From positions 4,295 through 68,294 of the forward strand of contig DATINP010000044.1 of NCBI GenBank assembly GCA_035474135.1: a stretch of 64,000 nucleotides of DNA, given 5' to 3'. Position 1 is the stretch's first letter. The number at the start of each line of letters is the position of its first letter. Of this stretch, positions 5,530 through 40,646 are shown one piece after another. The notes beneath the pieces were generated by a model that did not search any database, was not told the DNA's origin, and worked only from the letters and a program-made list of their open reading frames with translations. Both the position numbers and the translations under genes were made by a program. The stretch is from Chloroflexia bacterium. GTDB lineage: Bacteria > Chloroflexota > Chloroflexia > QHBQ01 > JADMIH01.

Positions 5530-5559
5530 CCAGCAGGCGTCGTCCGTCGTCCGTCGTCC
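5484..5559. repeat. (GGACGAC)n / (GTCGTCC)n hairpin element spanning the aroC-aroK junction
   Basis: Left arm acggacgacggacgacggacgaccgacgacgg, 22-nt loop, right arm cgtcgtccgtcgtccgtcgtcc. Confidence 0.85.
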
Positions 5560-7234: not shown

Positions 7235-7235
7235 A

Positions 7236-7703
7236 ATGGAGCTGAAGGACGACCGGAACGGGCGCACGAGGCTGCTGGTGCTGCACGGGCCGAACCTCAA
7301 TCTACTCGGGCTACGCGAACCGCACATCTACGGCACGCTGAGCCTGCCCGAAATAAACAGCGCGCTGAAGGAACAGGCAGCAGAAAATAAAGTGGAATTG
7401 CGGATTGTGCAGTCGAACCACGAGGGCGCGCTGATTGACGAGATACACTCGGCCAGAGATTGGGCAGCGGGGATATTGATCAACGCGGGCGCGTACACGC
7501 ACACCAGCTATGCCCTGCGCGATGCGATCTCGGCGGTGGGCCTACCCACGGTGGAGGTGCACCTGTCGAACATTTACGCGCGTGAGGAGTTCCGGCATCA
7601 CTCAGTGCTGGCAGCGGTGTGCAATGGGCAGATTTCGGGCTTCGGACAGGACAGCTACCTGCTGGGGTTGCAGGCGTTGTTAGGTGTAATTGACAGGCAA
7701 TAG
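7236..7703 (+). CDS. aroQ: 3-dehydroquinate dehydratase, type II
   Basis: [20 protein letters not shown] and [14 protein letters not shown] signatures. Confidence 0.9.
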
Positions 7704-7715
7704 GAGCTTCCCCGC

Positions 7716-8552
7716 TCAGAACGAGGTACGCACAGCGCGAATGAGGTTTATTGGAGAGGCGTGGGGTGTCGCTATCAGGTGAGCAAGTGCGCCGGCGTGC
7801 TCATCAATGCGGCGCATCACATCCGCTTCATCGTCTTCGCACGTACAGCCGACCAGGTCGAGACAGTGAGCCCAGGCAGATTCGCGCGCTCTGTCCACCA
7901 TCAAGCAGGAGAACTCCTCATCCCACTGACCGAAAATCTCGTCGAGAAATCGGAGGGCGGGAGAATAGAGGCGCTCCACATGCTCCTGTAGTGTGTTGGC
8001 AGTACGCTTGAGCACCTCGTTTACGCCTGTATGGTCGTCGTAGCGCATGGGACGATCCGGATCAATCCCGGAGCGCATGAGAGCGATTGCCAGGTCGTGG
8101 TTGATATGAGCATTGACGCCGAGCAGGAGATGTTGTATTGCCAGCCCCTCACCATTCGCGCTTAACTCAAATGCAACCCGCCAGGCAGTCGGCACGTGCT
8201 CCAGGTCTCCCCGCTCGAAGGCTCGGAAAGCCTCCATATAGAGTTGTGCAAAATTCACAAGATAGCTTTGCACCCATGGGCCGTCCCTGAACTCACCTGC
8301 CTCTATAGCCTCGTCCATAGCCGACGTGATCGTCAGATAAGCCCCAACAAATATTGCCCGCCGGTCATTCGCGGCTCGGAGTTCCTCTTCAAGAGCAGTA
8401 AAACCGGCTCGTGCCGCAGCCGGTGTGGAGTAGTCGCCGTCCATGTGGAAGGTGATACGCACCGTGCCGTCGGCGCCTGAAAGCAGGGGCTGATCCATAT
8501 CACCCATAGTGCTACTGTCGTCCTCGATTGGGAACTCAACAGAGTGGTTCAT
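7716..8552 (-). CDS. hypothetical protein (possibly DUF5995-like)
   Basis: 278-aa ORF convergent with aroQ; conserved-looking LLGVNAHINHDL stretch; function unknown. Confidence 0.4.
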   Translation of the reverse strand: MNHSVEFPIEDDSSTMGDMDQPLLSGADGTVRITFHMDGDYSTPAAARAGFTALEEELRAANDRRAIFVGAYLTITSAMDEAIEAGEFRDGPWVQSYLVNFAQLYMEAFRAFERGDLEHVPTAWRVAFELSANGEGLAIQHLLLGVNAHINHDLAIALMRSGIDPDRPMRYDDHTGVNEVLKRTANTLQEHVERLYSPALRFLDEIFGQWDEEFSCLMVDRARESAWAHCLDLVGCTCEDDEADVMRRIDEHAGALAHLIATPHASPINLIRAVRTSF

Positions 8553-8810
8553 CTAGGCTTCCTGCAGGAATACCGGCTCGTAAGCTCACCCGGGTATTGT
8601 AATGTTCGCTAAGAGTAGGCTGAACGGTGTCACTGAGTCGGCGGTCTAGCAACACTGTCTAAAGCAGACGGAAATACTATGTGTAATGGACGGCTGCACA
8701 TTCGCACAGCCTTATAGGTGGGCAAATTATACTGCCTGACCAACGCGTAAGTCAATGGTAGATTTCAGGGTAAGCGTTTGCATACCGCTGAGGATAATTG
8801 GGCGTGATGC

Positions 8811-8832
8811 CTTTTTTGCCGCGACAGAAATC
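8811..8832. repeat. degenerate copy of the TTTGTCGCGACAAA palindrome
   Basis: cttttttgccgcgacagaaatc downstream of cydB. Confidence 0.5.
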
Positions 8833-8986
8833 CACCGTCAGTTCTGATCAAGCCCGACCTCTTTACGCAGTTCGTCTGCGGTTTTGGGTTCGACCACGCC
8901 GTGCTCCGAACCTCCAGAGCCGGACGCAATCGGGCGGTTGGTAATGGGCGGAACATAGGTTCCGAGCGTCCGCATCCATCTGCGTT

Positions 8987-10018
8987 TTAGGCTTTGCCGT
9001 TCAAGTCCGCGGCTTCGGGGTTGTGCCCTTTGAACACAGTAAAAAGCAGCCACAACGATGGTATCAGCAGCAAAGCGCCTACCGGAGCGGTCGCCAGTAG
9101 GAAGCCGAGCGTGGCGTCGGGCGCAGCCGAGGCATCGATAGTTAGATCCGGGTAGATGAGATAAGGCCATTGCGCCAGCGCCCATCCCCAGAGTAGCATC
9201 ACCACCTCGGCCACGGCTGTGACGCGCGCCACTGCGAAGCGCCTGTTCAGCACAGCCCACAGCGATAAGAGCGCAAATACAACGCCGAGAGCGAGCACGG
9301 GCAACGCCCTCAAGCTCAACAGGTTCTCGGCCAACCTCGGAGCCTGCCACACAAGCAGGGGAATCAACAGCACCGAAATGGCCACCACCACGCCGCCCGA
9401 CACCAGTGTGCGCCGCCGGAAGTCCTCGCGCAAGTCACCTTCCGTTTCTAACGTAAGGTAGACCGCGGCGAGATAGGCGAACAGAGCCAGTGCCAGGGCG
9501 CCGCAGGCCCACGACAGTGGGGTGAGCCAGGCTGTAAAGTAGTTCACTTGTACGGTACCGCCCGCCGCAACCTTGATTTCGCCTGCGGACACTGCGCCGA
9601 GGCACATGCCAAGCAAGACAGGCGTAATAACACTCGCGCTCCCGAATGCACGCGCCCACACACGCTGCGGGCCAACTTCCTCCGATCCGTGTGCCCTGAA
9701 CACAAACGCCGCCCCGCGCAGAATGATCCCCAGCAACAATAAGTGGAACGGGATAAAGAAAGCCTCGCTCAAGGCCGAAAAGGCAATAGGAAAGGCCGTG
9801 AACAGAATCACAAGTAGAAAGATCAGCCAGACGTGGTTCGATTCCCAGACAGGCCCCATCGCATCGGAAATGGCGCGTCTTTGAGCGTTAGCTCGTGGGC
9901 CTCTCGCGAAGAAATCCCACACACCGCCACCAAAATCGGCTCCGGCGAGCACCGTATAGGCGGTGAGGGCGAGCAACGCCAGCCCTGCCGCCAGGGTACT
10001 AAGCGACAGCGACACCAC
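8987..10018 (-). CDS. cydB: cytochrome bd ubiquinol oxidase subunit II
   Basis: Multi-TM protein with CydB N-terminus (ADFGGGVWDFF...) immediately downstream of cydA. Confidence 0.85.
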   Translation of the reverse strand: MVSLSLSTLAAGLALLALTAYTVLAGADFGGGVWDFFARGPRANAQRRAISDAMGPVWESNHVWLIFLLVILFTAFPIAFSALSEAFFIPFHLLLLGIILRGAAFVFRAHGSEEVGPQRVWARAFGSASVITPVLLGMCLGAVSAGEIKVAAGGTVQVNYFTAWLTPLSWACGALALALFAYLAAVYLTLETEGDLREDFRRRTLVSGGVVVAISVLLIPLLVWQAPRLAENLLSLRALPVLALGVVFALLSLWAVLNRRFAVARVTAVAEVVMLLWGWALAQWPYLIYPDLTIDASAAPDATLGFLLATAPVGALLLIPSLWLLFTVFKGHNPEAADLNGKA

Positions 10019-11351
10019 CTACCTCCTTCCCGCCGCTCGCGGATGTTTTCTGGTCCTCGTCGTCAACAGGACGGCCCGTAGCAAGCCTGAGCAAAAGCCA
10101 TACCAGTGTTACAGCCAGTACGATATACAGCCCGATGAACCCGGCGAAAGTATACCAGACGCCAGGTGCCGGCGTCACCGCATCTGCCGTACGCATCACG
10201 TTGTAAATGATCCAGGGTTGGCGGCCCACCTCGGTAACGATCCATCCCGCTTCCAGCGCCGCCACGCCCAGGACGCCGCTCAGCACCAGGGCACGAAGGA
10301 TCCATTTCCCGTGCTCTCGCTTCCGCCACCGCACGAACCAGTAAATCAGAGCGAACAAAAGTATGGCGAGTCCGCTACCAACCATTACCTGGAACGATAT
10401 ATGCACCAGCCCAACCACAGGCCAATCGGTTCTCGGCACCGCATCCAGACCCTGTATCTCGGCATTCGGGTCGTGGGTCGCCAGGAAACTCAGACCATAA
10501 GGTATTTCTAAGGAGAAAGGCACAGTCTCGTTGTTGATGTCAGGTATGCCCCCGATCCGGAGAGGTGCGCCCTTTTCAGTTTTGAACTGCGACTCCATCG
10601 CTGCGAGCTTGACGGGCTGCGTCTGCGCCACCAGCCTTGCCGCAGCATCGCCACTAATTGGCTGTGCGACAGCGGTTATCGTGCCCAGTATCATCGCGAG
10701 CGCCAGCCCCACCTTGTGATAGGTGTCGCGCCTGCCCTTCAGCAGACCCCAGGCATACACGCCGGCCACCATAAACGCGGTTGCCATATAAGAGGCAAGA
10801 GTAAGGTGCACCGCCAGCACGGCCCAGGAGGGATTAATTAGCGCCTTCACGGGGTCAATGTTGGTGGCCTGTCCGTTTACGAGGTCGAAGCCGGTGGGAT
10901 CCTGCATCCAGGAGTTGGCCGACATGACCAGCACCCCTGACATCGCTCCGCTCACCGCCACGGGTATGCCGCAAAGCCAGTGGGCCGTGGGCTTTAGGCG
11001 CTTCCAGCCGTAGAGGTAGAGCCCCAGGAATATGGCCTCTATGAAGAAAGCGTATCCCTCAAGGGCGAAGGCCGGACCAATCAAAGGACCTGCGAGTTTC
11101 ATGAATGGCGGCCAGAGCAGGCCCAGTTCGAACGACAGAGCGGTGCCGCTGACAGCACCAATAGCGAACAGGATGCCCGTAGCTTTGGCCCACTTGTGTG
11201 CCAGATCGAGATAAACCGCCTTCTTCGTGCGCAGCCCTAGCCCCTCAGCCACCAGCATCAAGAGCGGCATGCCAATACCAAGCGCCGCAAAGACCATGTG
11301 AAATCCCAGAGAAATCGCCATCTGTAGTCGCGCAGCTATCAGATTTTCCAT
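9999..11351 (-). CDS. cydA: cytochrome bd ubiquinol oxidase subunit I
   Basis: CydA N-terminus and Q-loop region (GFHMVFAALGIGMP, WAKATGILFAIGAVSG, EGYAFFIEAIFLGLYLYGW). Confidence 0.9.
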   Translation of the reverse strand: MENLIAARLQMAISLGFHMVFAALGIGMPLLMLVAEGLGLRTKKAVYLDLAHKWAKATGILFAIGAVSGTALSFELGLLWPPFMKLAGPLIGPAFALEGYAFFIEAIFLGLYLYGWKRLKPTAHWLCGIPVAVSGAMSGVLVMSANSWMQDPTGFDLVNGQATNIDPVKALINPSWAVLAVHLTLASYMATAFMVAGVYAWGLLKGRRDTYHKVGLALAMILGTITAVAQPISGDAAARLVAQTQPVKLAAMESQFKTEKGAPLRIGGIPDINNETVPFSLEIPYGLSFLATHDPNAEIQGLDAVPRTDWPVVGLVHISFQVMVGSGLAILLFALIYWFVRWRKREHGKWILRALVLSGVLGVAALEAGWIVTEVGRQPWIIYNVMRTADAVTPAPGVWYTFAGFIGLYIVLAVTLVWLLLRLATGRPVDDEDQKTSASGGKEVGGVAVA

Positions 11352-11491
11352 CCAGTCACCCGACCTTTTCGGTTATGTCCTCGCCTATTTCCCGTATGGC
11401 AGTAAAATCTGTTCCCCTTTAATAGTACTCCTTGACCCATGTAAAGTGTAGAGGAATGTGATTAATTTCACATATATATTTGCCCTGTGCG

Positions 11492-12577
11492 TTAATCTCC
11501 AAGATCCTTTTCCACGCCGAACATGACGTATAGCTTACGGGCGATCACGCAAATGGTTGCAAGGTCAAGGCGCTCTTCGAGGGAGAGGTTGGCGTCGGCG
11601 TCCACGCTGTCGGCGAAGCTTTGCATCATAGCGGAAATGCGAGCCAACTTGGAGCGCCGCGCCCGACGGTTGGCACGCGCCATCAGCATCAGGCGGTGCA
11701 TCTGGCCTGCGGGAGTATCCTCTTTAGCCAAACGCTCAAGGTCGCGCTTCAGCTTGCGGTCGATCTGTACCTCTACGCCGTCCACCAGCACCGTCTCCAT
11801 GGTTGAGGTCGAAGAAGTGTCGCCTTCATCCTCGCCGACGAAGTCGGATTCGCCGCGCTTCTCTTTTAGCTGGCGGATGTACGTGGGGAGGTCGTCGGTG
11901 GTGATCTCGCCCGCGAGAAGCTGGCGGATCATATCTGCACGGTCGTCTGCGTCCGCCACTTTAATCAGGTTGGCGACAGCACGCAGGCTGTCGGGCTTGG
12001 CCTCGATCAGGGCCTGTATATCAGCGGGCGCTCTGGCGGCGCGTACCCTGTTGTAAACGTAGCCAAGCTTCTTGCCCACCTCGCGTGCGATCTGCTCCAG
12101 TGTGAAGCCCATCTCGGCGCTCATCAGCAGATAAATACGGCCTTCTTCGAGAGGCGAGAGGTCTTCGCGCTGGATATTCTCGGTGATGGCGAGAGTGACC
12201 ATCTCCTCGTCTGTGAGTTCCTTGACGATGACGGGCAGGGTAGAAAGACCGATCATGCGTGAGGCCTCACGCCTGCGGTGGCCGGCGGTAAGCTGGTAGT
12301 GGCCCTTGAGCTCGGGGTGAGGACGAGCGGTAAGGACGCCCTGAAAGCCCTGGGCGCGTATTACGGAGGCTAGTTCTTCGAGAGCCACACCACCTGTGCT
12401 GCTGCGAGGCTGGTAGGGGTTGTCGTGCAGGCGGTCGAGGGGCAACATGGTTGTACGGCGCTCGCCGTGTTGGCCCGAAGAGTCGGGCGAGAGGCTGGAC
12501 GCGAACAGCCGCGACATATCTTTGCCCGGCTCATCCAGGTCCAGTTCAACAGGTTTGAGAGTTCGTTTGCCGCTCAT
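11492..12577 (-). CDS. parB: ParB/Spo0J-family partition protein
   Basis: ParB N-terminal domain with LTAGHRRREAS (box II GHRR) and LPVIV motif; start chosen at MSGKRTL (ORF track extends to 12691). Confidence 0.8.
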   Translation of the reverse strand: MSGKRTLKPVELDLDEPGKDMSRLFASSLSPDSSGQHGERRTTMLPLDRLHDNPYQPRSSTGGVALEELASVIRAQGFQGVLTARPHPELKGHYQLTAGHRRREASRMIGLSTLPVIVKELTDEEMVTLAITENIQREDLSPLEEGRIYLLMSAEMGFTLEQIAREVGKKLGYVYNRVRAARAPADIQALIEAKPDSLRAVANLIKVADADDRADMIRQLLAGEITTDDLPTYIRQLKEKRGESDFVGEDEGDTSSTSTMETVLVDGVEVQIDRKLKRDLERLAKEDTPAGQMHRLMLMARANRRARRSKLARISAMMQSFADSVDADANLSLEERLDLATICVIARKLYVMFGVEKDLGD

Positions 12578-12861
12578 GTGTGCTCCGATCCGTTGATAGG
12601 TGTGAGAATTCGTCCTATGGTTGCCGGTGCCAATGCCGATTTTGGAAATGCTTGTGGGTGATAGTATAGCCCCACGTTGTTGCGGAGGCAAATCGTGCGG
12701 GTGTATTTTACTTCATAGCAAAGTCGCGCTGATTTTGCTTGCCGGGGGACCGATCTTCATGTGGAAGCGGACACCAGGTCTAACAAAATGGGCTAAAATG
12801 AATTACGTGTCGCCGATGAGCGCCGGCACTTTAGGGACTGAGCCGGAAAGGGGTAGCCAGG

Positions 12862-13773
12862 ATGAACGAGAAAGATATTAGCCTGCCTGTTGATGGAGGA
12901 GCACAGCGCCCCTCGCCTTTTGAGCAAATACGCCGTGAAACGGACGACGGCAGCGAGTTTTGGTCTGCCCGGGAACTGGCGAAGATACTTGGGTACACCG
13001 AGTTCGGCAAGTTCCGCAATGCACTTCAGAAGGCAGAGGTAGCCTGCGAGAACAGCGGACAGGAGATAGAGGATCATTTCGCCCATGTGAGCGATATGAT
13101 CACCATAGGCAAAGGCGGCAAGCGCAAGGTCGAGGATGTGAGGATGTCGCGCTATGCCTGCTATCTGGTCGTGCAAAACGCCGACCCTTCCAAAGAGATA
13201 GTAGCCATCGGGCAGACCTATTTCGCCGTACAGACCCGCAGGCAAGAACGCTCGGACGAGCTGGCGAGCCTCACCGCCGAGCAACGCCGTTTGTACCTGC
13301 GCGGCGAACTATCGAGCCATAACCGCAGGCTGGCCGAGGCCGCGAACCAGGCGGGCGTAGTAGAGCCGGTAGATTTTGCGGTATTTACCGACCACGGCTA
13401 CCAGGGTCTTTACGGAGGGCTGAAGCACCGCGACATCCACAAGCGCAAGGGTCTGAAGAAGTCACAGCACATACTCGATTACATGGATGGAGAAGAACTG
13501 GGCGCGAATATATTTCGCGTAACCCAGACAGAGGCCAAGCTAAGGCGCGAAGGCGTGCAGGGTAAGCAACAGGCCAACAAGGCTCACTTCGACGTGGGTA
13601 GGGAAGTTCGCGACACGATCGAACGGTTGGGAGGCACGATGCCAGAAGAACTTCCGACGCCCCAAGAGAGCGTGCAACAATTGCGCCGGAAGGAAGAGAA
13701 ACGCCTTGCGCAAGGGCCTCAGCTTTCGCTTATTGAAGGCGATACGGATGGAGACGATGACAGCGGCGAGTAG
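12862..13773 (+). CDS. dinD: DNA-damage-inducible protein D (DinD-like)
   Basis: Strong collinearity with E. coli DinD as recalled (EFWSARELA, RYACYLVVQNADP, QTYFAVQTRRQE). Confidence 0.75.
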   Translation: MNEKDISLPVDGGAQRPSPFEQIRRETDDGSEFWSARELAKILGYTEFGKFRNALQKAEVACENSGQEIEDHFAHVSDMITIGKGGKRKVEDVRMSRYACYLVVQNADPSKEIVAIGQTYFAVQTRRQERSDELASLTAEQRRLYLRGELSSHNRRLAEAANQAGVVEPVDFAVFTDHGYQGLYGGLKHRDIHKRKGLKKSQHILDYMDGEELGANIFRVTQTEAKLRREGVQGKQQANKAHFDVGREVRDTIERLGGTMPEELPTPQESVQQLRRKEEKRLAQGPQLSLIEGDTDGDDDSGE

Positions 13774-13814
13774 GCCTGGCGCTTAGCACAACATACGATA
13801 GAAAGAGATATAAC

Positions 13815-14273
13815 TTGGCTAACAAGAACGAAGAGATCATCGACAGCCCAACAGGGTGGGTCGCAAAGCATATTCGCACCTACGTCGAGAGCGGGGGCAC
13901 GGAAGGACAAAAGTACGCCGGCAGAGATTTACTGCTGCTGACTACGAGGGGTCGTAAGAGCGGCAAGCTTCGCCGTACCGCGCTCTACTATGGTGTTGAT
14001 AACGGACGCTACATACTCATAGCTTCAAATGGCGGCAGTCCGAAGCATCCGCTATGGTACCTGAACTTGCAAGAAGAGCCGAAAGTGGAGGTGCAGGTCG
14101 GCCCCGAAGTTTTCAGCGCGGTCGCACGTCCCGCAACGGAGAAGGAGAAGCCGCGCTTATGGGAGATGATGGTCAGTATATTCCCTAACTATGCAGCATA
14201 TCAAAAGAAAGCAACCAGAGATATCCCGGTGGTTGTCGTAGAGCGGAGTAACAAGCCGGGTTCGACTGAATAA
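13815..14273 (+). CDS. deazaflavin (F420)-dependent nitroreductase-family oxidoreductase (Ddn/DUF385-like)
   Basis: TTRGRKSGKLRRTAL and HPLWYLNL motifs typical of the Ddn family. Confidence 0.75.
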   Translation: MANKNEEIIDSPTGWVAKHIRTYVESGGTEGQKYAGRDLLLLTTRGRKSGKLRRTALYYGVDNGRYILIASNGGSPKHPLWYLNLQEEPKVEVQVGPEVFSAVARPATEKEKPRLWEMMVSIFPNYAAYQKKATRDIPVVVVERSNKPGSTE

Positions 14274-14346
14274 CCGGTGATCCCCTGTTTGGACACGAGG
14301 GATGGTTAAGAATCATTTCCCCCACGCCGGGGAAATGATCGTCTTG

Positions 14347-15015
14347 CTAGCTTTCTTCCGGCTCCATGAAGTTGCGAGCTACTCCGCAGGTGGTCGTCCA
14401 TACGATGGCGGCGAACCAACCCGCAAGCACATCTGTGGGATAATGCACCTCCAGGTACACACGACTTGCTCCTATGAGCGCGCAGAATGGCAGCACGGGC
14501 ACCCATACCAGCCGTGCGATCGGGTGCCCTGTCAGGTTACCCCGGCGGCTGACAATGTAGGCCAGGGTGCCGTAGGTAGCAAGCGTGGTCATCGCGTGAC
14601 CGCTGGGAAAGCTATAGCCTGTGGCGTGGGCACGGCGGAGCTTTAGAGCAGGACGCGCCCTGTGAAACCTGCGTTTCAGAAGTTCATTGAGAATTCCGCC
14701 CCCGATCAAACCGGACGCCCAGGTTACCAGGTCAGCCTTGCGGTCATGTGCCAGCAACGCCAGACCGACAAGCACTCCGGATGTGCCCAGAAACCAGGGC
14801 TCACCGAGAGCAGTAGCTGCCGACATGATCCTGTCGAGGGCAGGGCTGCGCATCTCGCGAGCCTCTTCAACCAGGCGTGTGTCGATGGCCATGGATTCGT
14901 TCTCAAGAATCTCGTCGGCAAGCTTACCGAACAGGAAGACGCTGCCCAGACTGACGCCAATGCCAGCGACCAGTACTGCCGGCACGGGCAGAACCTGCCC
15001 CCGCTTTCTACCCAT
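14347..15015 (-). CDS. PAP2-family phosphatase
   Basis: YSFPSGHAM and SRVYLEVHYPTDVLAG acid-phosphatase motifs; N-terminal TM helix. Confidence 0.85.
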   Translation of the reverse strand: MGRKRGQVLPVPAVLVAGIGVSLGSVFLFGKLADEILENESMAIDTRLVEEAREMRSPALDRIMSAATALGEPWFLGTSGVLVGLALLAHDRKADLVTWASGLIGGGILNELLKRRFHRARPALKLRRAHATGYSFPSGHAMTTLATYGTLAYIVSRRGNLTGHPIARLVWVPVLPFCALIGASRVYLEVHYPTDVLAGWFAAIVWTTTCGVARNFMEPEES

Positions 15016-15250
15016 AAATCCGCACCTCCCTGTTCACAATTGCGTTTTGCCCGCTGCGCTGACAAGGAAATGCTTACTCGCAAAATGCGTGCCAGGATCC
15101 GGCAGGGTAGGATAAATGTAGACACAGATCACGCCTCTATGATGGCATCGGACTCTGTGGAAGCGTATTATCGGAGGCGGACACGATGCATCCGCCAGGA
15201 CATAGCTGGACCGGTCTTGCGCCCGTCAGGTGACATACAGGAGTCCGTAG

Positions 15251-16336
15251 CTAATCGTCGCCGGTTGCTTCGGAGATTGGCACATTACTCCCAGCGTGAG
15301 GTGTGTTTGGTACAAGTTTTGAAATGCGGTCGAGGGCAGGCCCGCCTATTACGCGTAGAAGTTCTGCCAGCAGATTGCGGTAGGCCTGGGTGTGCTCGCT
15401 ACGGGGGTGGAGGGTGACCATCACCTGCCGCAGCATGGAGGCTTCGCCATATTTGGTGCTGCGCTTAATAGTGGTCTTGAAGGCGCGTATATTGCGCTTT
15501 TGGAGGGCTTGCCGCAGGCTCTCTTCCATTGCCCGGGCCACGTTGGTGCTGGACTGCACCATCATCGCCACCGCGCCAGCCACCTGCAAGCGCGGGTTGA
15601 AGTCTTTGCGCGTTTCGTCTACGCGCTTCAAGAGCAGTTGCAGACCCTTGAGGGAGAGCATCTCGAGTTCCGTAGGGATCACCAGGTAATCGGCAGCGTA
15701 CAGGGCGTTGATGGTGAGGGAGCTAAGGTTGGGGCCGGGATCGAGCAGGATGTAGTCGTAGCGACCGCGTATCCCGCGCATGGCGTTGGACAACCGGCTC
15801 CCCCAGTTGGGTTTGCCGCGCAGGTAGTCCTCGGCTTCACTGCTGACAATGTTGTTGGGCACGAGGTCGGGGCCGAAGGCGGTGTGCAGGATGACATCCT
15901 CTAGCTCACAATCGCCGATCATAGCGTCATAGACCGTGGCCTGGAGGCCCTCAGGGTTGTGACCCAGCGACCATGTGAGATGGCCCTGCGGGTCGAGGTC
16001 GACCGCCAGCACTCGCACCCCCAGCCCTGAGAGCAACACCGCAAGGTTGGCGGTGGCGGTGGTTTTGCCCACCCCTCCCTTCTGGTTGACGAGCGCGATC
16101 ACCACAGCGCCGTGGTTGCGGTCGAGCGACATGCCCGCGAGAAAGGCGTCCACATCGGCCTCGTAGACTCGGTAATGGCCGCCGGAGGTGGAGTTGGCAG
16201 GCAGGAGGCCTTCGCGGATGTACTGGGCCACAGTGCCTGTATGCACACCCAGGCGCTCGGCTACCTCGGAGGTTCGGAGCAGGCGGCTATGTTCCCTGGC
16301 GTCGCGGTTGTCGCGCGTATCGCGTGCGTCTCTCAT
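15251..16336 (-). CDS. parA: ParA/Soj-family ATPase with N-terminal MerR/excisionase-type HTH
   Basis: Deviant Walker A NQKGGVGKTT plus N-terminal HTH (LLRTSEVAERLGVHTGTVAQYIREG); N-terminus carries an (RDx) tripeptide repeat. Confidence 0.8.
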   Translation of the reverse strand: MRDARDTRDNRDAREHSRLLRTSEVAERLGVHTGTVAQYIREGLLPANSTSGGHYRVYEADVDAFLAGMSLDRNHGAVVIALVNQKGGVGKTTATANLAVLLSGLGVRVLAVDLDPQGHLTWSLGHNPEGLQATVYDAMIGDCELEDVILHTAFGPDLVPNNIVSSEAEDYLRGKPNWGSRLSNAMRGIRGRYDYILLDPGPNLSSLTINALYAADYLVIPTELEMLSLKGLQLLLKRVDETRKDFNPRLQVAGAVAMMVQSSTNVARAMEESLRQALQKRNIRAFKTTIKRSTKYGEASMLRQVMVTLHPRSEHTQAYRNLLAELLRVIGGPALDRISKLVPNTPHAGSNVPISEATGDD

Positions 16337-16631
16337 CGTCGTCCTTTCAGTTGGAGAGCAGCCCAGATGTCCCCTTGTAGTACAGTGGTGGAAGACCCTT
16401 CTCCTGCACCATTCATACTCTACGTGCGTTACGACCGATTATTGCGTTTCGTGCGTTAGATGGGTAATATATCATGAAATCGTGTAAGTGCGAAGTTTAT
16501 CCACAATCGAAACCAGGATGACTTCCTGGTGAAACGTAACACAAACAGCGATTGATACGTATGATCTGGTAGACTGGATGGTGTAGTCCGGTATCACAGC
16601 CTGGGAGTTTACAGGCAAAGGCGATAAAGCA

Positions 16632-17048
16632 ATGTTAATAGCGTTACATCCACCTGCGTTCTTGTGGTTTTTCAGCGGGTTCCGTGGGAACTGGACCTTC
16701 ATTATAGGGTTCATCGTTATCATGCTGGTGTTGCGGGTTGCATTACGCAGCTTCTTCCCTAGAGGGGGCATGAGGCGCGGCGGGGGGCCTCGTTATAACA
16801 AGTACAACCAACCGCAACCACCGAAACCTGATCAAGGCCAAATCACCGACAAACCCTACTACGGAGCGCCGGGAACCAATAGCGAAGGACAGGGTACGGG
16901 AGCAGAAACTGTGCGCACCGGCGGGGTCGACACGCGCCGCGTGGATAACTGGAGCAGTGAAACGCCCTCGGCCTACGGCGAGCCTACCCGCCCGCTGGAG
17001 AGCAAATCTGAGATGCCGAGAGAAGATACCGACCAGACCTCTTCTTAA
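16632..17048 (+). CDS. hypothetical small membrane protein with disordered C-terminus
   Basis: 138-aa ORF with two predicted TM helices then a G/P/Q-rich tail; sits in an AT-richer intergenic block. Confidence 0.35.
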   Translation: MLIALHPPAFLWFFSGFRGNWTFIIGFIVIMLVLRVALRSFFPRGGMRRGGGPRYNKYNQPQPPKPDQGQITDKPYYGAPGTNSEGQGTGAETVRTGGVDTRRVDNWSSETPSAYGEPTRPLESKSEMPREDTDQTSS

Positions 17049-17058
17049 TCTCGGGCAA

Positions 17059-18762
17059 CTATGTGATCTTCGGTACTGAGCGGCGCAGACACGCGAAGAA
17101 GTAGGCCATTTTATTCGTCAGGCCTATCGCGCCGTGCTTGCCCTGTCCTTCGCGCGTGGTACGCTTCGCAGTGTACATGAGGTCCACGAACGCCTCGGCT
17201 TGCAGCCCCGACGTGCGCCATAACCGCATTGCTTGGCCTACATTTTCCAGCACGTGATCAGCATCTCCCAGTTCGTATGAGAAGTCTGCAACTACCCTCG
17301 AGATAAAGGGCGAATAGGCCGGGTCGCGAGCTTCTCCGGGTTCGTTCCCAGAAGCCTTTTTGACCAAGTTATGACTCGAGTCAGCCTTCATAATTTGTTC
17401 TGGATGATCTGCTTCTATTTCGTGTTCACCGCGCGTCACCGGGGGCTGTGCACTGCCTGTCATGGGACGCGGTGTCTTCCGCTTTACAGGGGCTAGCAAC
17501 TGCGCGTCACCTGGGCGTGCATACTGTACGTCGTTGGGGCCTGTCAACTGTGCGTCACTACCCACCTTATACTGTACGTCACTGGTGGCAATAAACTGGG
17601 TGTCACCGGGAAGAGGATACTGTATGTCACCAGGGGGTGTATACTGCGCGTCACCGGGATGCGCATACCCGCCGTCACGACCCATTGTATGTATCTGTGC
17701 GCCTGCACGGTCGCGTCGAGCCTGTGCCGCGAGGCTGCCGCGACGGGCTTTCTTGACTGGAAGGGTCGTGCTTGCTTCCTGCAAAGCTCCTGCTGTAGCG
17801 TCGGCTTCTGTGTCGTCTCCGGTTGGGGTTTGTCCGTTCTTCCCCGGTTTGAGCAGGTTGCGGATCTCGTCCAAGAGGGGGCTGAAGTCGTAGGCGTTCG
17901 AGTCTTGCCCGCCGTCGCTCTTGGTGCGGCGTACCAGCCGAAGCGAGCCGCGCTCGACCAGTCCCGTCTTGATGCGGTGCAGATAGGCGGCTGTGTAACC
18001 CGTCTGCAAGGCCATACGCACTATGCTGGGATAGGGCAGGGATGTGTCCCACTGGTATGAGAAAATGTAGGCCACGAACCACACCTGCTGTGGGGTCATG
18101 TCCAGTTCTTTACTGTATGTAAACAGGGCGCGTGGCACCGCTGCCACTCCGTAGCGGGTCAGTACCCTGCCGTAGCGGGCCACAAAGCTTGGGTCGTGCT
18201 GGGCGCGCTCGATCTCTTCGATGCCGCGCTCGTACCCGTTCTCATGCCCGTTGCGTTGGGGGAAATCTGGGACGCGTGTGGGGTCGTAAATCGAGCTTAT
18301 GGGATTGCTGTTGATCCTGCTTTTGACGTGCTCGGTAATGCACGATTCGAGCCTCTCGAACAGGGCGGCGAAGTCGTAGTAGTTCGACTCTTGCCCGCGC
18401 TCCTGCGACCTCCTGGGCAGGACCAGCAGGTAGCCCATGCCCTGTAGCTCGTCGCTGTATCGTTGTAACTGCCTCTTGCTCATGCCCGATGCGCGGGACA
18501 TCACGCCCAGGCTGGGGTAGGGGAGGTCTTCGTCCCATTTATGTGACAGGATGTAGGAGATGAACCATACATGCTGGGCGTAGAGGTCGAGCTTACCACC
18601 GAAGTGGTACAGCGCCGACGGCAGGGCCGCGATCCCGTGTTGCAGGATCACTCTGCCGAAACGCGCCGCGAAGCTATTGCCTGTCCCGGCAAAGGTGCCC
18701 GGGTTGACCTCTATATCGCCGTTTTGTCCTACCCTGCCCCTCTGTTCTATATTTTTGGGCAT
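17059..18762 (-). CDS. putative replication-initiator-like DNA-binding protein with tandem winged-helix domains and an octapeptide repeat
   Basis: Two roughly 110-aa paralogous domains (ARFGRVILQHGIAALP... and ARYGRVLTRYGVAAVP..., each ending SN.YDF); 8 x (xGDxQYxx) repeat; GGAGG RBS 8 nt upstream of ATG at 18762. Confidence 0.45.
   Translation of the reverse strand: MPKNIEQRGRVGQNGDIEVNPGTFAGTGNSFAARFGRVILQHGIAALPSALYHFGGKLDLYAQHVWFISYILSHKWDEDLPYPSLGVMSRASGMSKRQLQRYSDELQGMGYLLVLPRRSQERGQESNYYDFAALFERLESCITEHVKSRINSNPISSIYDPTRVPDFPQRNGHENGYERGIEEIERAQHDPSFVARYGRVLTRYGVAAVPRALFTYSKELDMTPQQVWFVAYIFSYQWDTSLPYPSIVRMALQTGYTAAYLHRIKTGLVERGSLRLVRRTKSDGGQDSNAYDFSPLLDEIRNLLKPGKNGQTPTGDDTEADATAGALQEASTTLPVKKARRGSLAAQARRDRAGAQIHTMGRDGGYAHPGDAQYTPPGDIQYPLPGDTQFIATSDVQYKVGSDAQLTGPNDVQYARPGDAQLLAPVKRKTPRPMTGSAQPPVTRGEHEIEADHPEQIMKADSSHNLVKKASGNEPGEARDPAYSPFISRVVADFSYELGDADHVLENVGQAMRLWRTSGLQAEAFVDLMYTAKRTTREGQGKHGAIGLTNKMAYFFACLRRSVPKIT
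17487..17680. repeat. 8 x 24-bp tandem repeat inside the Rep-like gene (iteron-like; encodes xGDxQYxx)
   Basis: Each unit ends ACTG(Y)(R)(Y)GTCAC with exact 24-bp period (GTCAC ends at 17510, 17534, ... 17678). Confidence 0.8.
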
Positions 18763-18781
18763 AGAAAACCTCCTGTACCCC

Positions 18782-18810
18782 TTGACAGGAGGATGGCCCG
18801 GTGCTACAAT
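18782..18810 (+). promoter_or_regulatory. consensus sigma70-type promoter (TTGACA-17-TACAAT)
   Basis: TTGACA 18782-18787, 17-nt spacer, TACAAT 18805-18810; points away from the Rep-like gene. Confidence 0.55.
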
Positions 18811-18816
18811 GCTTTT

Positions 18817-18909
18817 GAGCATACATTGTGCCGGTGATCCTCCTCCCAAGAGGGCCACACCGACGGAATCTTCAAAGCCTGACTGTTACCAGCAGTCGGG
18901 TTTTTATTT
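18817..18909 (+). ncRNA. putative small RNA of about 90 nt (promoter plus terminator defined), divergent from the Rep-like gene
   Basis: Consensus promoter at 18782-18810 and an 8-bp-stem hairpin followed by TTTTTATTT at 18878-18909; no ORF in between. Confidence 0.4.
18878..18909 (+). terminator. rho-independent terminator
   Basis: CCTGACTG/CAGTCGGG stem (one G-U pair), 7-nt loop, then TTTTTATTT. Confidence 0.6.
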
Positions 18910-19131
18910 GTCCGTCGTAAGTTCACCTGTGATGTGGAAGCCATTGAACCGGGCTGCCTTGTGTGCCTCGTGGGCTGAGCTGTCGCGTTCCCAGGCGCTC
19001 TTGCTCGTTCCCCGCACACCTCCCGATCTCTGTACTTCCATCATTGTCTGATTGCTAGGTCATCGTGTTATTCCTCCCGCGTAACCCGAAAAAACGGCTC
19101 GAAAAAAGGATACAAAAATGCTCCATGCCTA

Positions 19132-19160
19132 TTGACAGGGAGTTGGTAGTCTGGTATATT
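19132..19160 (+). promoter_or_regulatory. consensus sigma70-type promoter (TTGACA-17-TATATT) with upstream A-tracts
   Basis: TTGACA 19132-19137, 17-nt spacer, TATATT 19155-19160; preceded by GAAAAAACGGCTCGAAAAAAGG A-tracts. Confidence 0.45.
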
Positions 19161-19428
19161 GAGGTTACGCAATCGAATATACAGCTACAACACCCCTGCA
19201 AGGGTCCTTGTGGCGGAACCTGAAGCCTCTTAGACTGCAATCTTCGAGGTTTCGATATTTAAGCCGCCCCTTTGTATTTATGTCGGAGCAAGTTCGCTCC
19301 CGGTTGTTGGTTTATTAGTGCGGTCTGTTTTCTCCCTGTTGCATGTGGCTCATGGTTGCTCTTTGGCCTGTATCATGGCGTGGGTCGCTGCGTCTCCACG
19401 GTCTGCAAACCAGGAGACACATCATACC

Positions 19429-19674
19429 CTAGCCCTCTGTACCCGTGCGCTGTTGCGCCGGCACCTGGATGGTGTCGCGGCCTCTTTGCAACTGCTCAAG
19501 CTGTTCGAGGCGCTCGACGATATCGTCGTAGCTGTCGGCGTCCAACACCACGAACCTCTGCCTCCCCTTGACCACCAGCACAGGCCGCCCATTGGACGCC
19601 TGTTCCAGCTGTGGGCCGGGATTCATCCTGAAGCTCTTGTAGTCCACCACATCTCTCAACTGTATCTTCGCCAT
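19429..19674 (-). CDS. Phd/YefM-family type II antitoxin (orphan)
   Basis: MAKIQLRDVVDYKSF...VVLDADSYDDIVERLEQLEQLQ matches the Phd/YefM fold; GGAGG RBS; no toxin ORF detected downstream. Confidence 0.6.
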   Translation of the reverse strand: MAKIQLRDVVDYKSFRMNPGPQLEQASNGRPVLVVKGRQRFVVLDADSYDDIVERLEQLEQLQRGRDTIQVPAQQRTGTEG

Positions 19675-20045
19675 GAGCGACCTCCGTTCGTCTGAGCTTT
19701 CCAGTATCTGGCTTGAGATGCTATGCTGTATCTGCAATATTACTACTTAACGTATGCGCGAAGCACATATCTACGTAGAAATCTCCAACTTTCTTACGCA
19801 CAGAATCTCCAACCTACCGGATGATAGCGGATGTTGCGCCGGATAGCAATAGGTTTTTACACATCCTTTGGTTTCTCGGCCCGTCTCTTGCTTACATTCT
19901 AGTATGCCAGGGATCCTTGTCGCGAGAAAAAAATGGACATAGGACTCGGGGACGGAACACGGATCACGAAGATAACCAGGAAGCCTATGAGAGCGAGTAA
20001 GAGAACTCCAAGATATTCAAGGATCAAGCGTTTGAACTACGACTT

Positions 20046-21494
20046 ATGACTTACGATCCACGACTCCCCATGACTATCGTGGGCGCGGGGCCGAACGGGC
20101 TGGCTGCCGCCATCACGCTGGCTCGCGCCGGGCGGCAGGTGCTGGTGGTCGAGGCCAACCATGACATTGGTGGTGGCGTACGCTCGTCTGAACTGACCTT
20201 GCCCGGATTCGTGCACGACGTATGCTCGGCCATCCATCCTCTCGGCGTGGCCTCTCCCTTCTTCCGCGCCCAGCCTCTACAGAACTTCGGCTTGGAGTGG
20301 ATACAGCCTCCCGCCTGTATGGCGCACCCCCTGGACGACGGCACCGCAGTCATGCTCTACCGCTCGATAGGCAAGACGGCCAGGGGACTGGGGGGTGACG
20401 GCACGGCCTACCGCAGGCTGATATCGCCCATCGTGCGCAACTGGCGAGGGATCGAGCGATACGTGCTGGGTCCCTTCCGTCTACCGTTGCGTCTGGACCG
20501 GCTACTGGCGCTCGCGTGGTTCGGTGTGTGCGCGTTGCCGCCCACCCGCCTGGTGGCCTCTATTGCCTTCAGGGGCGAGAAGGCACGTGCGCTATGGGCG
20601 GGCTGTGCCGCGCACTCGATGCTGCCTCCCGACCGCCTCGCCAGTTCAGCCGCCGCTACTCTGCTCACCACTCTGGCTCATGTCGCGGGGTGGCCTATGG
20701 CGCGGGGAGGGTCGCAGCAGATCGCCAACTCGATGTCGGCCTACCTGCGTAGTATGGGGGGCGAGATTCGGACCGATACGCGCATTGACAGTATGAGCGA
20801 CTTGCCCGCGTCGGAGGCTGTGCTGTTCGATGTTAGTCCGCAGCAGTTATTAGGAATAGCGGGCGATGCCCTGCCGGATCGCTACAGGCGGCAGTTGAAG
20901 AAGTATCGGTATGGACCGGGCGTGTTCAAGATAGACTACGCGCTGAACGGCCCGGTGCCCTGGCGCGCCGAGGAGTGCAAGCAGGCGGGTACGCTCCACC
21001 TGGGGGGCACGTTCGAGGAGATCGCGCACAGCGAGAGCCAGGTGGGTAGAGGTATTCCCGCCGACCGCCCCTTCGTGCTGGCCGCGCAACAGAGCCTGTT
21101 CGACCCCACGCGCGCCCCGGCAGGCAAGCATACCTTCTGGGCCTACTGCCACGTGCCCAACGGCTCGACATTCGACATGACCGAGCGCATCGAGGCCCAG
21201 ATCGAGCGGTTCGCGCCCGGCTTCCGCGAGCGTGTGCTGGCCCGACACATTACCACGCCCGCCCAATTCGAGGCGCATGACGCGAACTACATCGGCGGCG
21301 ACATCAACGGCGGCATACAGGACATCCGCCAGCTTTTCACGCGTCCCGTGCCGTCGCTGAACCCTTACAGGACGCCCGCGCCCGGCATCTATATTTGCTC
21401 GGCGTCCACCCCTCCCGGCGGCGGCGTACATGGCATGTGCGGCCTCCACGCGGCTCGCGTGGCGCTACGCGAGCATAGATCTACGACTCGCTGA
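20046..21494 (+). CDS. NAD(P)/FAD-dependent oxidoreductase, phytoene-desaturase (CrtI)-like amine-oxidase family
   Basis: N-terminal dinucleotide-binding motif IVGAGPNGLAAAITLARAG and CrtI-like length and architecture. Confidence 0.65.
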   Translation: MTYDPRLPMTIVGAGPNGLAAAITLARAGRQVLVVEANHDIGGGVRSSELTLPGFVHDVCSAIHPLGVASPFFRAQPLQNFGLEWIQPPACMAHPLDDGTAVMLYRSIGKTARGLGGDGTAYRRLISPIVRNWRGIERYVLGPFRLPLRLDRLLALAWFGVCALPPTRLVASIAFRGEKARALWAGCAAHSMLPPDRLASSAAATLLTTLAHVAGWPMARGGSQQIANSMSAYLRSMGGEIRTDTRIDSMSDLPASEAVLFDVSPQQLLGIAGDALPDRYRRQLKKYRYGPGVFKIDYALNGPVPWRAEECKQAGTLHLGGTFEEIAHSESQVGRGIPADRPFVLAAQQSLFDPTRAPAGKHTFWAYCHVPNGSTFDMTERIEAQIERFAPGFRERVLARHITTPAQFEAHDANYIGGDINGGIQDIRQLFTRPVPSLNPYRTPAPGIYICSASTPPGGGVHGMCGLHAARVALREHRSTTR

Positions 21495-22401
21495 GGCTGA
21501 TCACACCACGCGAGGAGAGCCGCCACAGCAGTAGGTGGTAATAGAGCATCCCACGCCAGGGTCCAAGCGCCTCCAGGATCGCGGCCCCTTCCGAGTCGGG
21601 GCCGGCGGCTTCTGTGCCGAACAGCCCCCTCATGTTGCGCTGCGCACCACTATCCCCTGCGGGAAACACTTCAAGCCTGCCCAGCCCCCGCAACATCACC
21701 ACGGCTGCCGTCCAGGGTCCGATCCCACGCAGCCGGGTAAGCACGGCCATTGCGTCTGCTGTGGGCAGAGCGTCCAATTCCGCCTCGGTCAGCCGCTCCT
21801 CCAATATTGCGCGGGCGGCCTCCTGTAGCGTTCTTACCTTCGCGGCGCTCAGCCCCAGCGAACGCAGGGTATCAGGATCAGCTTCCAGTACTTGCTCTGC
21901 CGAGGGGAAAGGGTAGAGCGTGACCTCGCCGAACGCGAGCGGCGTGCCGAAGTGGGCGATCACTCTTCTAATGATGGACATGGCCGACTCCAGGCTCACC
22001 TGCTGGAAAGTGACCGCCATGCATAGGGCCTCCCACATGGAGGCGTGCCGTGGAGGCTTTACCCCACGTGCCCGCGCCACCAGCGCCCCCATCTCGGGCA
22101 CTTTCTCGGCGGCGGCGTAAAAGCCCCCAAGCTCCACTCGCGCGCCCAGCATCAGGGGGATTCGCGTAGTGAGCTTTGCATCCGTCCTCTCGTTCTGCTT
22201 ACTGTCCACCGGGCGGTAGAGCGCGACCTCCAGCGTGTCTGTGCCTGCAGGCTGGCGGGCCACGCACACTCTTATATCTTCCCCATTAACAAAGGCCCTC
22301 ATATAGAGGCCGTCCTGAGTGAGCAGGTCTACCAGGTTGCTGGGGATGCGCCGCAATACAGTGGCGGTCAGGTCGAGCCGGTAGGGCGGGGCGCATTGCA
22401 C
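21481..22401 (-). CDS. alkA: DNA-3-methyladenine glycosylase II (AlkA-like, HhH-GPD)
   Basis: AlkA N-terminal domain plus HhH-GPD segment (LRGIGPWTAAVVMLRGLG, catalytic-Asp region). Confidence 0.7.
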   Translation of the reverse strand: MQCAPPYRLDLTATVLRRIPSNLVDLLTQDGLYMRAFVNGEDIRVCVARQPAGTDTLEVALYRPVDSKQNERTDAKLTTRIPLMLGARVELGGFYAAAEKVPEMGALVARARGVKPPRHASMWEALCMAVTFQQVSLESAMSIIRRVIAHFGTPLAFGEVTLYPFPSAEQVLEADPDTLRSLGLSAAKVRTLQEAARAILEERLTEAELDALPTADAMAVLTRLRGIGPWTAAVVMLRGLGRLEVFPAGDSGAQRNMRGLFGTEAAGPDSEGAAILEALGPWRGMLYYHLLLWRLSSRGVISLSES

Positions 22402-22469
22402 GACGAAGCGCTCGATTTGTATCCAGCCGGGCGGCGTGGCAATTGACGCTACAGGCTTTATGATCTTGC

Positions 22470-22952
22470 CTACCCTTCCTGCGATGCGACGCTCAACTGT
22501 GCGGCCATGTCGAGCAGGGCCGCTTCGGGCACGGCGCTCTCTATCAGTGGGAAGACCACGTCCTCCTCGTAGCGGATGTGCGCCCGGAATAGCTCGGCCA
22601 GAGCCTGCATGGTATCAACTGACGGCCCGTCACCCCTGGCCTGACGGCTCAGGTCGTCCACCATGCGGCGAATCTGCACGTGCTCCATTAGCATACGTAT
22701 AATGGGTTCCGCCGAGGGGTCGCCGTAGCGCGAGAAGGCGGGCAGCATGATCTCCTCCTCCTCGCGAAAGTGGCGCACGGTGTGTTCCGCCCAGAAGGCG
22801 AGGAACTCGGTCACTATTTGCTCGGTGTTGATGGACTTTGCACCTTCCCCACCGCCCAGGGTTTCGGCGCCCTGCTTCAGGTGGCGGGCGTGCACCAACC
22901 CCTGGTGGTGGTCGGAAGAGAGGTCGCGCAGGGCGGGGTGGCGCTTGACCAT
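22470..22952 (-). CDS. hemerythrin HHE cation-binding domain protein
   Basis: HH..G, H..EE and FP.IE spacing typical of hemerythrin-like domains. Confidence 0.55.
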   Translation of the reverse strand: MVKRHPALRDLSSDHHQGLVHARHLKQGAETLGGGEGAKSINTEQIVTEFLAFWAEHTVRHFREEEEIMLPAFSRYGDPSAEPIIRMLMEHVQIRRMVDDLSRQARGDGPSVDTMQALAELFRAHIRYEEDVVFPLIESAVPEAALLDMAAQLSVASQEG

Positions 22953-23281
22953 TAGCGCCCCCCCGTTTCAGCCAGCCCCTTTTGGCTCATTACGAGGTCG
23001 CGTCCTGAGGGCGTGATGCGGTAGATGGGCAGGTTCGCCAGGTTGGGTATCTGCACGATCAGGGGCTTGTCAAACGGTTTGTTGTGGGCTACCGGGTCGA
23101 GCAGGCTTATTACAGCAGCGCGTATCTGCTCCTCGGTATGCTCCACAGCCAGGTAGCGCAGTTCGCTGAAGCTAAGCGTCATCTTGCGCAGTTGGTCCAA
23201 TGCGTCGTACAGGAGATAAAGTACCTCCCACTCTGCCGCTGTGAGGCCGCCTACAGATTGTGCCGAGTAGTATCTGTCCAT
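22952..23281 (-). CDS. hypothetical protein
   Basis: 109-aa ORF translationally coupled to the hemerythrin gene. Confidence 0.4.
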   Translation of the reverse strand: MDRYYSAQSVGGLTAAEWEVLYLLYDALDQLRKMTLSFSELRYLAVEHTEEQIRAAVISLLDPVAHNKPFDKPLIVQIPNLANLPIYRITPSGRDLVMSQKGLAETGGR

Positions 23282-23295
23282 GGTGGGGTCCTTGG

Positions 23296-40630: not shown

Positions 40631-40646
40631 CAGGGGACGTAATCTT

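Follow-up and report, generated by a model that had tools for sequence, protein, structure and literature searches.

In bacteriophage lambda, the replication origin (ori-lambda) lies within the gene of the initiator O, where the iterons and the AT-rich region that follows them occupy the sequence coding for the linker that joins the DNA-binding domain to the recruiting domain. In plasmid pSK41, Rep binds Rep boxes situated centrally in its own gene; the origin encodes a dispensable linker, and the N- and C-terminal domains of the protein are DnaD-like (PMC5703833). Copy control in RepA_N plasmids involves an antisense RNA and a leader with ON and OFF folds, the OFF fold being terminator-like and hiding the ribosome-binding site (PMC8129170). 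The repABC replicons of Alphaproteobacteria unite ParA, ParB and the initiator in one cassette, with the origin in the initiator gene and control by a counter-transcript RNA, and they maintain megaplasmids, chromids and second chromosomes (PMC3155836). The RepA_N plasmids of Firmicutes (pSK41, pSK1, pSA564, pAD1) are the closest functional match to the locus described here. It occupies positions 11352-19950 of a 64,000-nucleotide (nt) stretch, referred to as the window, in contig DATINP010000044.1 from a metagenome-assembled genome (MAG) of a Chloroflexia bacterium. The locus contains rep, the gene of a tandem winged-helix protein, together with the partition genes parA and parB.

The segment is read here as a complete plasmid-type basic replicon that most probably maintains the large, host-adapted secondary replicon (a chromid or megaplasmid) to which the contig would belong; this reading is given a probability of about 0.55. 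From the organization of the linker-coding DNA of rep, the origin of replication seems to be located within this initiator gene. Shared with the RepA_N plasmids are the DnaD-like N-terminal DNA-binding domain and the helical C-terminal domain in the model of Rep. Further likeness would lie in a putative origin central in rep and in linker-coding DNA (24-nt array, AT-rich tract and palindrome), and in a predicted antisense RNA to the leader of rep, where a predicted hairpin covers the ribosome-binding site. Unlike RepA_N initiators, the window Rep has no PF06970 sequence match and carries two tandem winged helices instead of one, and about 10 repeats of 24 nt stand here against four Rep boxes. 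The host, a member of the Chloroflexia, also differs, as do the very large contigs with type Ia-like parAB and the DnaA domain I of some paralogues. For comparison, 11 related loci were used, labelled L001-L005, L008, L009 and L013-L016. The elements of the segment and its edge are the following (aa, amino acids; HTH, helix-turn-helix; ORF, open reading frame).

9999-11351: cydA (Pfam)
11492-12577, minus strand: parB, 361 aa (Pfam ParB_N 8e-20, HTH_ParB 2e-10)
12862-13773, plus strand: Bro-N/antirepressor-like gene (Pfam Bro-N 1e-9)
13815-14273, plus strand: gene of a Ddn-like F420H2-dependent quinone reductase (Pfam F420H2_quin_red)
14347-15015, minus strand: PAP2 phosphatase gene (Pfam)
15251-16336, minus strand: parA, with an N-terminal HTH of MerR/HTH_17 type (AAA_31 2e-47, CbiA, HTH_17 2e-11)
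16424-16505, minus strand: probable parA promoter/operator block (promoter scan; conserved in L001)
16632-17048, plus strand: orf138, a small membrane-type ORF of 138 aa, convergent with rep
17059-18762, minus strand: rep, 567-aa initiator
17340-17430: putative DNA-unwinding element, AT-rich, beside the array
17431-17680, minus strand: putative iteron array inside rep, about 10 repeats at 24-nt spacing
18769-18792, minus strand: rep-leader hairpin (terminator scan and folds)
18782-18908, plus strand: predicted antisense (counter-transcript) RNA gene (promoter and terminator)
19132-19316, plus strand: second predicted small RNA gene (promoter and terminal hairpin)
19429-19674, minus strand: gene of a Phd/YefM-like protein, 81 aa (Pfam PhdYeFM 8e-5)
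19781-19849, minus strand: probable phd-rep promoter and two direct repeats

Pfam and fold searches bear out the genes named in an earlier sequence-only reading of the window (ParB, Ddn-like, PAP2, HTH-fused ParA, tandem winged-helix Rep, Phd-like and, beyond the Phd-like gene, a CrtI-like flavoprotein). The gene that it called DinD is present and carries a Bro-N domain.

The structure of Rep was predicted by AlphaFold with a 55-sequence alignment and then compared by Foldseek and a PDB profile search. Two winged helices resembling the N-terminal domain of DnaD are predicted with confidence at residues 30-152 and 190-305, followed by a disordered linker (308-479) and a four-helix C-terminal domain (480-565). 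The DnaD N-terminal domain is the top match in the profile search and is also ranked first by Foldseek; these matches stand clear of those to generic winged helices, and RepE and Pi are weak structural matches. The fold is thus modelled as DnaD-like for the N-terminal DNA-binding domain as well as the C-terminal domain. At the sequence level, the window Rep scores 23.5-24.1 bits against HTH_36 (PF13730, cut-off 25) and 18-22 bits against DnaD_N (PF21984, cut-off 27). By one account, replication proteins resembling phage O have a fold of the HTH_36 kind (PMC8951638). Both domains are found on most homologues in precomputed annotation, and the homologues P0044 and P0068 pass the DnaD_N cut-off with 29.0 and 28.4 bits. 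These two paralogues also end in a C-terminal DnaA_N domain (DnaA domain I, PF11638; E 4e-16 and 1e-12). No match to RepA_N (PF06970) was obtained with the whole Rep at E <=0.01 or with each winged helix alone at E <=1.

The Rep family comprises about 200 clusters (50% identity) at E <=1e-30 and 1000 at E <=1e-10. In the genome scan, relatives were found only in Chloroflexia/Chloroflexota MAGs, and others lie on metagenome contigs; none was detected in 2.9 million viral contigs. None of 72,556 plasmids was matched by the segment in a megablast search, and tblastn of Rep against plasmids returned weak single-domain matches only (29-34% identity) to proteobacterial 'HTH domain' proteins. The homologues are annotated only as 'helix-turn-helix' or 'AraC-like', and by JGI as 'AraC-like' or 'GntR family' regulators. 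In L008 and L009 the Rep relatives are shorter (ORFs of about 360 aa) and have a single winged helix. The iteron plasmids (RepE of F, Pi of R6K, RepA of pPS10) resemble the window in having two winged helices per protomer and direct repeats about two helical turns apart adjoining an AT-rich region.

The putative origin is located in the linker-coding DNA of rep. Tandem Repeats Finder and repeat finding were used for array detection, and the units were then laid out in register; they follow each other at exact 24-nt spacing, with the core GGTGACRYRCAGTWK. When six lags were compared per gene in 10 rep genes, lag 24 gave the highest self-similarity in all of them (36-74% identity). Correspondingly, in a survey of 116 homologous proteins, an 8-residue period was the strongest in 111, at relative position 0.63. 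The lowest GC content of the window rep (0.38-0.42, in a window of about 60% GC) is reached in the stretch adjoining the array, and in 8/10 rep genes the 60-nt window of lowest GC is found 160-240 nt beyond the point where the strongest 24-nt periodicity begins. Within this AT-rich stretch lies the palindrome TGACTCGAGTCA (17372-17383), whose symmetry is kept by mirrored changes: it reads GATTCGAATC in L002-L005 and L014, and GACTCGAGTC in the window and L001.

The array also encodes a recognizable peptide motif, P-G-D-x-Q-Y, and the repeats could accordingly be a flexible linker and nothing else. On that explanation the locus would be no replicon at all: the tandem winged-helix protein would be a DnaD-like accessory protein or a transcription factor, and ParA and ParB would serve some other positioning. 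The Pfam scores of the window Rep below threshold and the regulator names that JGI gives to its homologues speak for it. However, the repeat motif is kept when the frame is not. The 13-mer CCCGGTGACGCGC occurs in frame at 17646-17658, where it reads P-G-D-A, and frame-shifted at 17431-17443, where it reads P-V-T-R; the last two units of the array carry the repeat DNA motif in the shifted frame. In L004, TATGAAGCAGAG is read first as Y-E-A-E and then as M-K-Q-S, with 12/12 identity out of frame, and in L008 and L009 GTGAC is read as V-T throughout, instead of G-D. Codon choice is fixed on rare codons. The glycine of G-D is encoded by GGT in 4/4 cases, against a 13% window-wide share of glycine codons (P 3e-4), and the tyrosine of Q-Y by TAT in 4/4, against a 28% share of tyrosine codons (P 6e-3). 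Computed against L001, the synonymous rate (dS) is lowest in the array, 0.50 compared with 0.92-2.26 in the flanking domains, and the ratio of non-synonymous to synonymous rates (dN/dS) is 0.64-1.14 there. The frame-shifted motif, rare codons, low dS and mirrored palindrome together indicate selection on the DNA rather than on the peptide. The AT-rich tract and palindrome that follow the array in relatives, the fusion of DnaA_N in paralogues, the DnaD matches clear of generic winged helices, and the conserved linkage to parAB and to an antisense RNA gene likewise argue against a locus that is not a replicon, which is considered quite unlikely.

In the plasmid-type replicon, Rep would bind the approximately 10 iterons of 24 nt in the linker-coding DNA of its own gene by means of its two winged helices. 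In L008 and L009, each 24-nt unit holds GTGAC twice, at a distance of about 12 nt and in some cases inverted, and this 12-nt sub-repeat would fit one binding site per winged helix. The AT-rich stretch adjoining the array would then melt, and the helical C-terminal domain of Rep may recruit the host helicase or primase, with DnaA domain I as a possible additional means of recruitment in some paralogues. As in lambda, the putative origin of the window is embedded in the linker-coding part of an initiator gene. Unlike lambda, there is no phage context and no relative in viral contigs; partition genes, predicted antisense control and a different C-terminal domain are found here. The iteron core also occurs once in isolation, as GGTGACATACAGGAG (1 mismatch), at 15229-15243 on the plus strand, just 3' of the parA stop; this copy may be due to chance.

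The region upstream of rep is rich in predicted control elements. The sequence-only reading had pointed to two near-consensus sigma-70 promoters there, and both are confirmed on the plus strand, at 18782-18810 and 19132-19160, each with 11/12 matches and an extended -10. From the first, TTGACA-17-TACAAT, transcription would begin some 55 nt upstream of the rep start codon and run away from it. The predicted antisense transcript is about 90 nt long, with an intrinsic terminator (18874-18904) and a T run at its end; its fold has a z score of -3.4. The promoter, in the form TTGACA-17/18-TACAAT (TTGACT in L014), faces the 5' end of rep in 12/12 loci, that is, in the window and the 11 others. The terminator aligns in the 10 loci of alignment A3 (the window and 9 of the 11 other antisense loci), with compensatory changes in the stem. 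The rep strand is predicted to form the hairpin CCUCCUGU/ACAGGAGG ahead of UUUUCU and the AUG; this hairpin buries the ribosome-binding site and resembles an attenuator. An alternative pairing partner, GGGAGGAGGAU, is located at 18837-18847, and CCUCC of the leader could instead pair with the upstream GGAGGAGG, within the region covered by the antisense RNA. The short antisense RNA would thereby set the copy number, its pairing with the rep leader favouring the hairpin that buries the ribosome-binding site before the AUG.

The second small RNA would be transcribed from TTGACA-17-TATATT and end in a terminal hairpin with a T-rich tail near 19285-19316. From the promoter to about 115 nt into the transcript, it is nearly invariant in L001, L015, L016 and L013, yet Rep of L013 is only 58% identical to that of the window. 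An Rfam search at E <=1 over 11000-20500 gave no match for either small RNA. The phd-rep spacer of 666 nt, which holds these elements, contains long blocks nearly identical to L001, and rep and its upstream region together align with L001 at 79%.

The probable phd-rep promoter, TTGCTA-17-TATCAT (19849-19821, minus strand), lies in a block conserved in L001; behind it, GTTGGAGAT occurs twice as a direct repeat with a 24-nt spacing (19781-19789 and 19805-19813). When promoter-like sites on the rep strand are counted from 9/12 matches upwards, all those upstream of rep are also upstream of the Phd-like gene, the nearer being this one. As no such minus-strand site occurs between the phd promoter and rep, phd and rep probably form one transcript. 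The Phd antitoxin of the sequence-only reading exists as a Phd/YefM-like ORF; the protein scores 22.7 bits against a Pfam cut-off of 29.8, no toxin ORF is adjacent, and the gene is always paired with rep. It is 90-91% identical in L001, L015 and L016 and 78% identical in L013, always just upstream of rep. This position makes the Phd-like protein a candidate repressor of the phd-rep transcript, and together with the second small RNA it may add control to that of the antisense RNA. At 19916-19927, there is a degenerate copy of the 16-nt palindrome TTTTGTCGCGACAAAA, and L001 has a perfect copy there, between the CrtI-like gene and phd. Three copies of this palindrome occur in promoter-like gaps of the window (88-103, 3377-3392 and 58816-58831), two of which precede genes of the shikimate pathway; a regulator probably acts there.

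The partition genes belong to a type Ia-like system, with a Walker-type ParA that has an N-terminal HTH and a ParB with ParB_N and HTH domains. The identity of ParA amounts to 94-95% for L001, L015 and L016 and to 87% for L013. Compared with the circular 375-kb plasmid of Candidatus Chlorohelix allophototropha, the identity is 62% for ParA and 61% for ParB, and a Bro-N or P22_AR_N gene adjoins parA/parB in that plasmid as well as in L001, L005, L013, L015 and L016. The probable parA promoter, TTCGCA-17-TATATT at 16494-16466, lies in an upstream block conserved in L001, with AACGCAC repeats at 16424-16430 and 16451-16457. Immediately upstream of the -35 is a perfect DnaA box, TTATCCACA (16497-16505), which is found at the same place in L001, L015 and L016; L001 and L015 have a second DnaA box upstream of parB. 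Across the window, there is no enrichment of DnaA boxes (7 found, 7.3 expected), nor of the motif CGTGCGTTAS. ParA, with its HTH probably autoregulatory, and ParB would segregate the replicon, with the Bro-N protein travelling along.

The arrangement of these genes is old. In L001 (Rep 74% identical) and L015 (about 71%) the order is CrtI-Phd-Rep-orf138-DUF5995-ParA-(Kelch/SLH protein)-PAP2-Ddn-Bro-ParB, and in L016 it is DUF1214-DUF1254-CrtI-Phd-Rep-orf138-DUF5995-ParA-PAP2-Ddn-Bro-ParB-cydA-cydB, with ParB 90% and cydA 93% identical to those of the window. These orders establish that both boundaries proposed in the sequence-only reading, CrtI|Phd-Rep and ParB|cydAB, are conserved in relatives. 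The differences are local only: the DUF5995 gene lies elsewhere in the window (7716-8552), and L001 and L015 contain an inserted Kelch gene. The product of orf138, which has no Pfam match, is 48-50% identical at the same position in L001, L015 and L016. The Ddn and PAP2 genes occupy the same place in these three loci and are missing from the compact module of L013; by this distribution, they would be cargo between parB and parA.

The sequence-only reading had put first a recently acquired integrated plasmid or a remnant of an integrative and conjugative element (ICE). Plasmid-type genes are indeed clustered within 8.5 kb, the segment has no heptamer arrays, and a paralogue is known from integrated or conjugative contexts. 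The conserved junctions and internal order contradict this view; conservation of the whole block in relatives had been named beforehand as an outcome that would speak against it. The proposed boundaries share no attachment (att)-like direct repeat of at least 11 nt. Among the window proteins that were scanned there is no integrase, as that reading had itself remarked, and the window has no tRNA gene. There is no compositional seam either: coding GC is 0.59 in the segment and 0.61 outside, and intergenic GC 0.50 and 0.52, so that the intergenic DNA is not AT-rich in contrast to the rest of the window, as had been claimed. Integrase, att repeats and a compositional seam, the marks of an integrated mobile element (ICE, integrated plasmid or prophage), are thus all missing in these searches. 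The genes are intact. Rep has a dN/dS of 0.07 in the winged-helix domains and 0.06 in the C-terminal domain against L001, and such strong purifying selection means that it is not a decaying remnant.

The heptamer argument fares no better. It is correct that 11352-19950 contains no heptamer arrays, but the contrast with the remainder of the window is not real: none of the 8 intergenic gaps inside the segment has an array against 11/36 outside (P about 0.05; 0.69^8 = 0.05), the true array-free stretch (6777-23295) is wider than the segment, and two further stretches of 9-10 kb in the same window (39703-49961 and 52041-61447) are also free of arrays. Moreover, the Rep/Par modules of relatives carry heptamer arrays (L016 13446-13472, L013 13922-13975, L002 2834-2862), and those of L008 and L009 have several. 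The absence of heptamers from the segment therefore carries no significance, and recent acquisition is held to be highly improbable. By its synteny, composition and selection, the segment is an intact, long-resident unit and not a recent insertion.

Some features of the heptamers themselves were recorded. In L008 and L009, long arrays such as (GCGTGAG)x12.9 lie directly 3' of rep. In the window, arrays occur in inverted pairs able to form long hairpins (5484-5566 and 6698-6772). An (ACGGACG)n/(CGTCGTC)n pair is located at the junction of chorismate synthase and shikimate kinase. A (GACGACG)n/(CGTCGTC)n pair lies within the 3-dehydroquinate synthase ORF and is translated in frame, and thus represents an insertion within a conserved enzyme domain. 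Farther away, at 43716-45068 on the minus strand, the window encodes a PARP homologue with a WGR domain (PARP 7e-33, WGR 1e-10).

The alternative that the sequence-only reading had placed beside recent acquisition, the replication/partition locus of a secondary replicon, has become the best supported, since the parts of a replicon are present and conserved. Rep adjoins ParA-ParB in nine loci (L001, L002, L004, L005, L008, L009, L013, L015 and L016), and members of its family are found on contigs of 104 kb to 1.15 Mb. The trio of ParA, ParB and Bro-N is carried by the closed circular plasmid of Candidatus Chlorohelix allophototropha (NZ_CP128401.1), a bacterium of the same class; unlike the window, no homologue of its Rep family was detected on that plasmid. 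The predicted Rep, parAB and antisense RNA together constitute the plasmid-type replication and partition system by which chromids are recognized. In this respect, the locus recalls repABC, from which it differs in its unrelated initiator (DnaD-like tandem winged helix as opposed to RepC), gene order and host phylum, and in that rep stands outside the parAB operon.

Several observations weigh against a secondary replicon. The source is a 68-kb MAG contig, nearly all of which is covered by the window. For HTH_36 and DnaD_N, the scores of the window Rep fall slightly short of the Pfam cut-offs, RepA_N gives no match, and the module contains no canonical parS site within 3 mismatches and no recurrent 16-nt palindrome, although a non-canonical site is possible. 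In the local GC-skew check, limited to the window, no origin-like switch was seen at the locus: strand-corrected skew has positive values to the left (+0.08) as well as to the right (+0.03) of rep. Of the coding bases, 72% on the right and 60% on the left point towards the locus, so that the genes converge on rep, the opposite of a bidirectional origin with co-oriented genes. The complete shikimate operon that forms the left flank and abuts the block fits a chromid and equally a chromosome. Finally, a contig of 1.15 Mb carries a pair of Rep paralogues separated by 825 kb, one of which has TraG and relaxase genes as neighbours; Rep-family members thus do sit inside larger replicons. The paralogue with these neighbours is that of L014 (ENA ERZ25039533 contig_28112, 59.7-81.3 kb); it has an internal 24-nt array and an antisense promoter, and its neighbours, namely TraG/TrwB-like, Replic_Relax, large helicases and a MmeI-like methyltransferase, mark a conjugative element. 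The other copy belongs to a Rep-ParA-AntA-ParB module at 885-907 kb of the same contig.

With neither skew nor orientation switching at the locus, an old chromosomal co-integrate must be given weight. A plasmid or chromid would have fused into a larger chromosome, and the module would have been inherited vertically since then, being silent, partly used (e.g., only parAB or the regulators) or an extra origin. Besides the converging genes, this would account for a module flanked by core metabolism including a complete shikimate operon, for the TraG/relaxase-linked Rep paralogue in a contig that also carries a Rep-ParAB module, and for the cargo genes and rearrangements accumulated within the module. 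A 7.28-Mb contig also carries HTH-ParA/ParB pairs of this type far from its ends, and the 8 kb read to either side of them contain no Rep homologue. On the other hand, the parts of the replicon are intact and constrained (Rep dN/dS 0.06-0.07, ParA 94-95% identical, antisense RNA gene nearly identical in L001), which would be hard to maintain for a silent origin, and integrase, att site and compositional seam are missing. An active second origin within a bacterial chromosome is, in turn, expected to be disruptive. The co-integrate is therefore regarded as possible, though clearly less probable than a separate replicon. One particular form of it, a plasmid-type origin that is still active inside a DnaA-replicated chromosome and conserved across genera, is compatible with the shikimate operon at the edge, the lack of a skew switch and the intact replicon parts, and is considered unlikely. 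If true, it would provide a natural bacterial chromosome with a second origin that is not initiated by DnaA. The maintenance locus of a large secondary replicon, which would fire as the origin of its own replicon, remains the preferred reading.

Secondary replicons are increasingly recognized in Chloroflexota, where no initiator has been assigned to the chromid-like ones; in Ktedonobacteria, a study of 2026 did not detect a canonical Rep on such replicons (PMC13289182). The 605-aa protein encoded beside parAB on the 2.28-Mb second contig of Ktedonobacter sp. SOSP1-85 (BNJI01000002.1) was considered as a candidate and rejected, as it has no similarity to Rep; the Rep family is thus not the explanation for the chromids of Ktedonobacteria. 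For the Chloroflexia, the locus would define a DnaD-like initiator family whose putative origin and copy-control RNA can be read from the sequence. It may serve as a marker for plasmids and chromids in Chloroflexia MAGs, and as a candidate minimal replicon on which to base vectors for this phylum, where hardly any genetic tools exist. It would also add an independent case, outside Firmicutes, lambdoid phages and repABC replicons, of an origin within the linker-coding part of an initiator gene.

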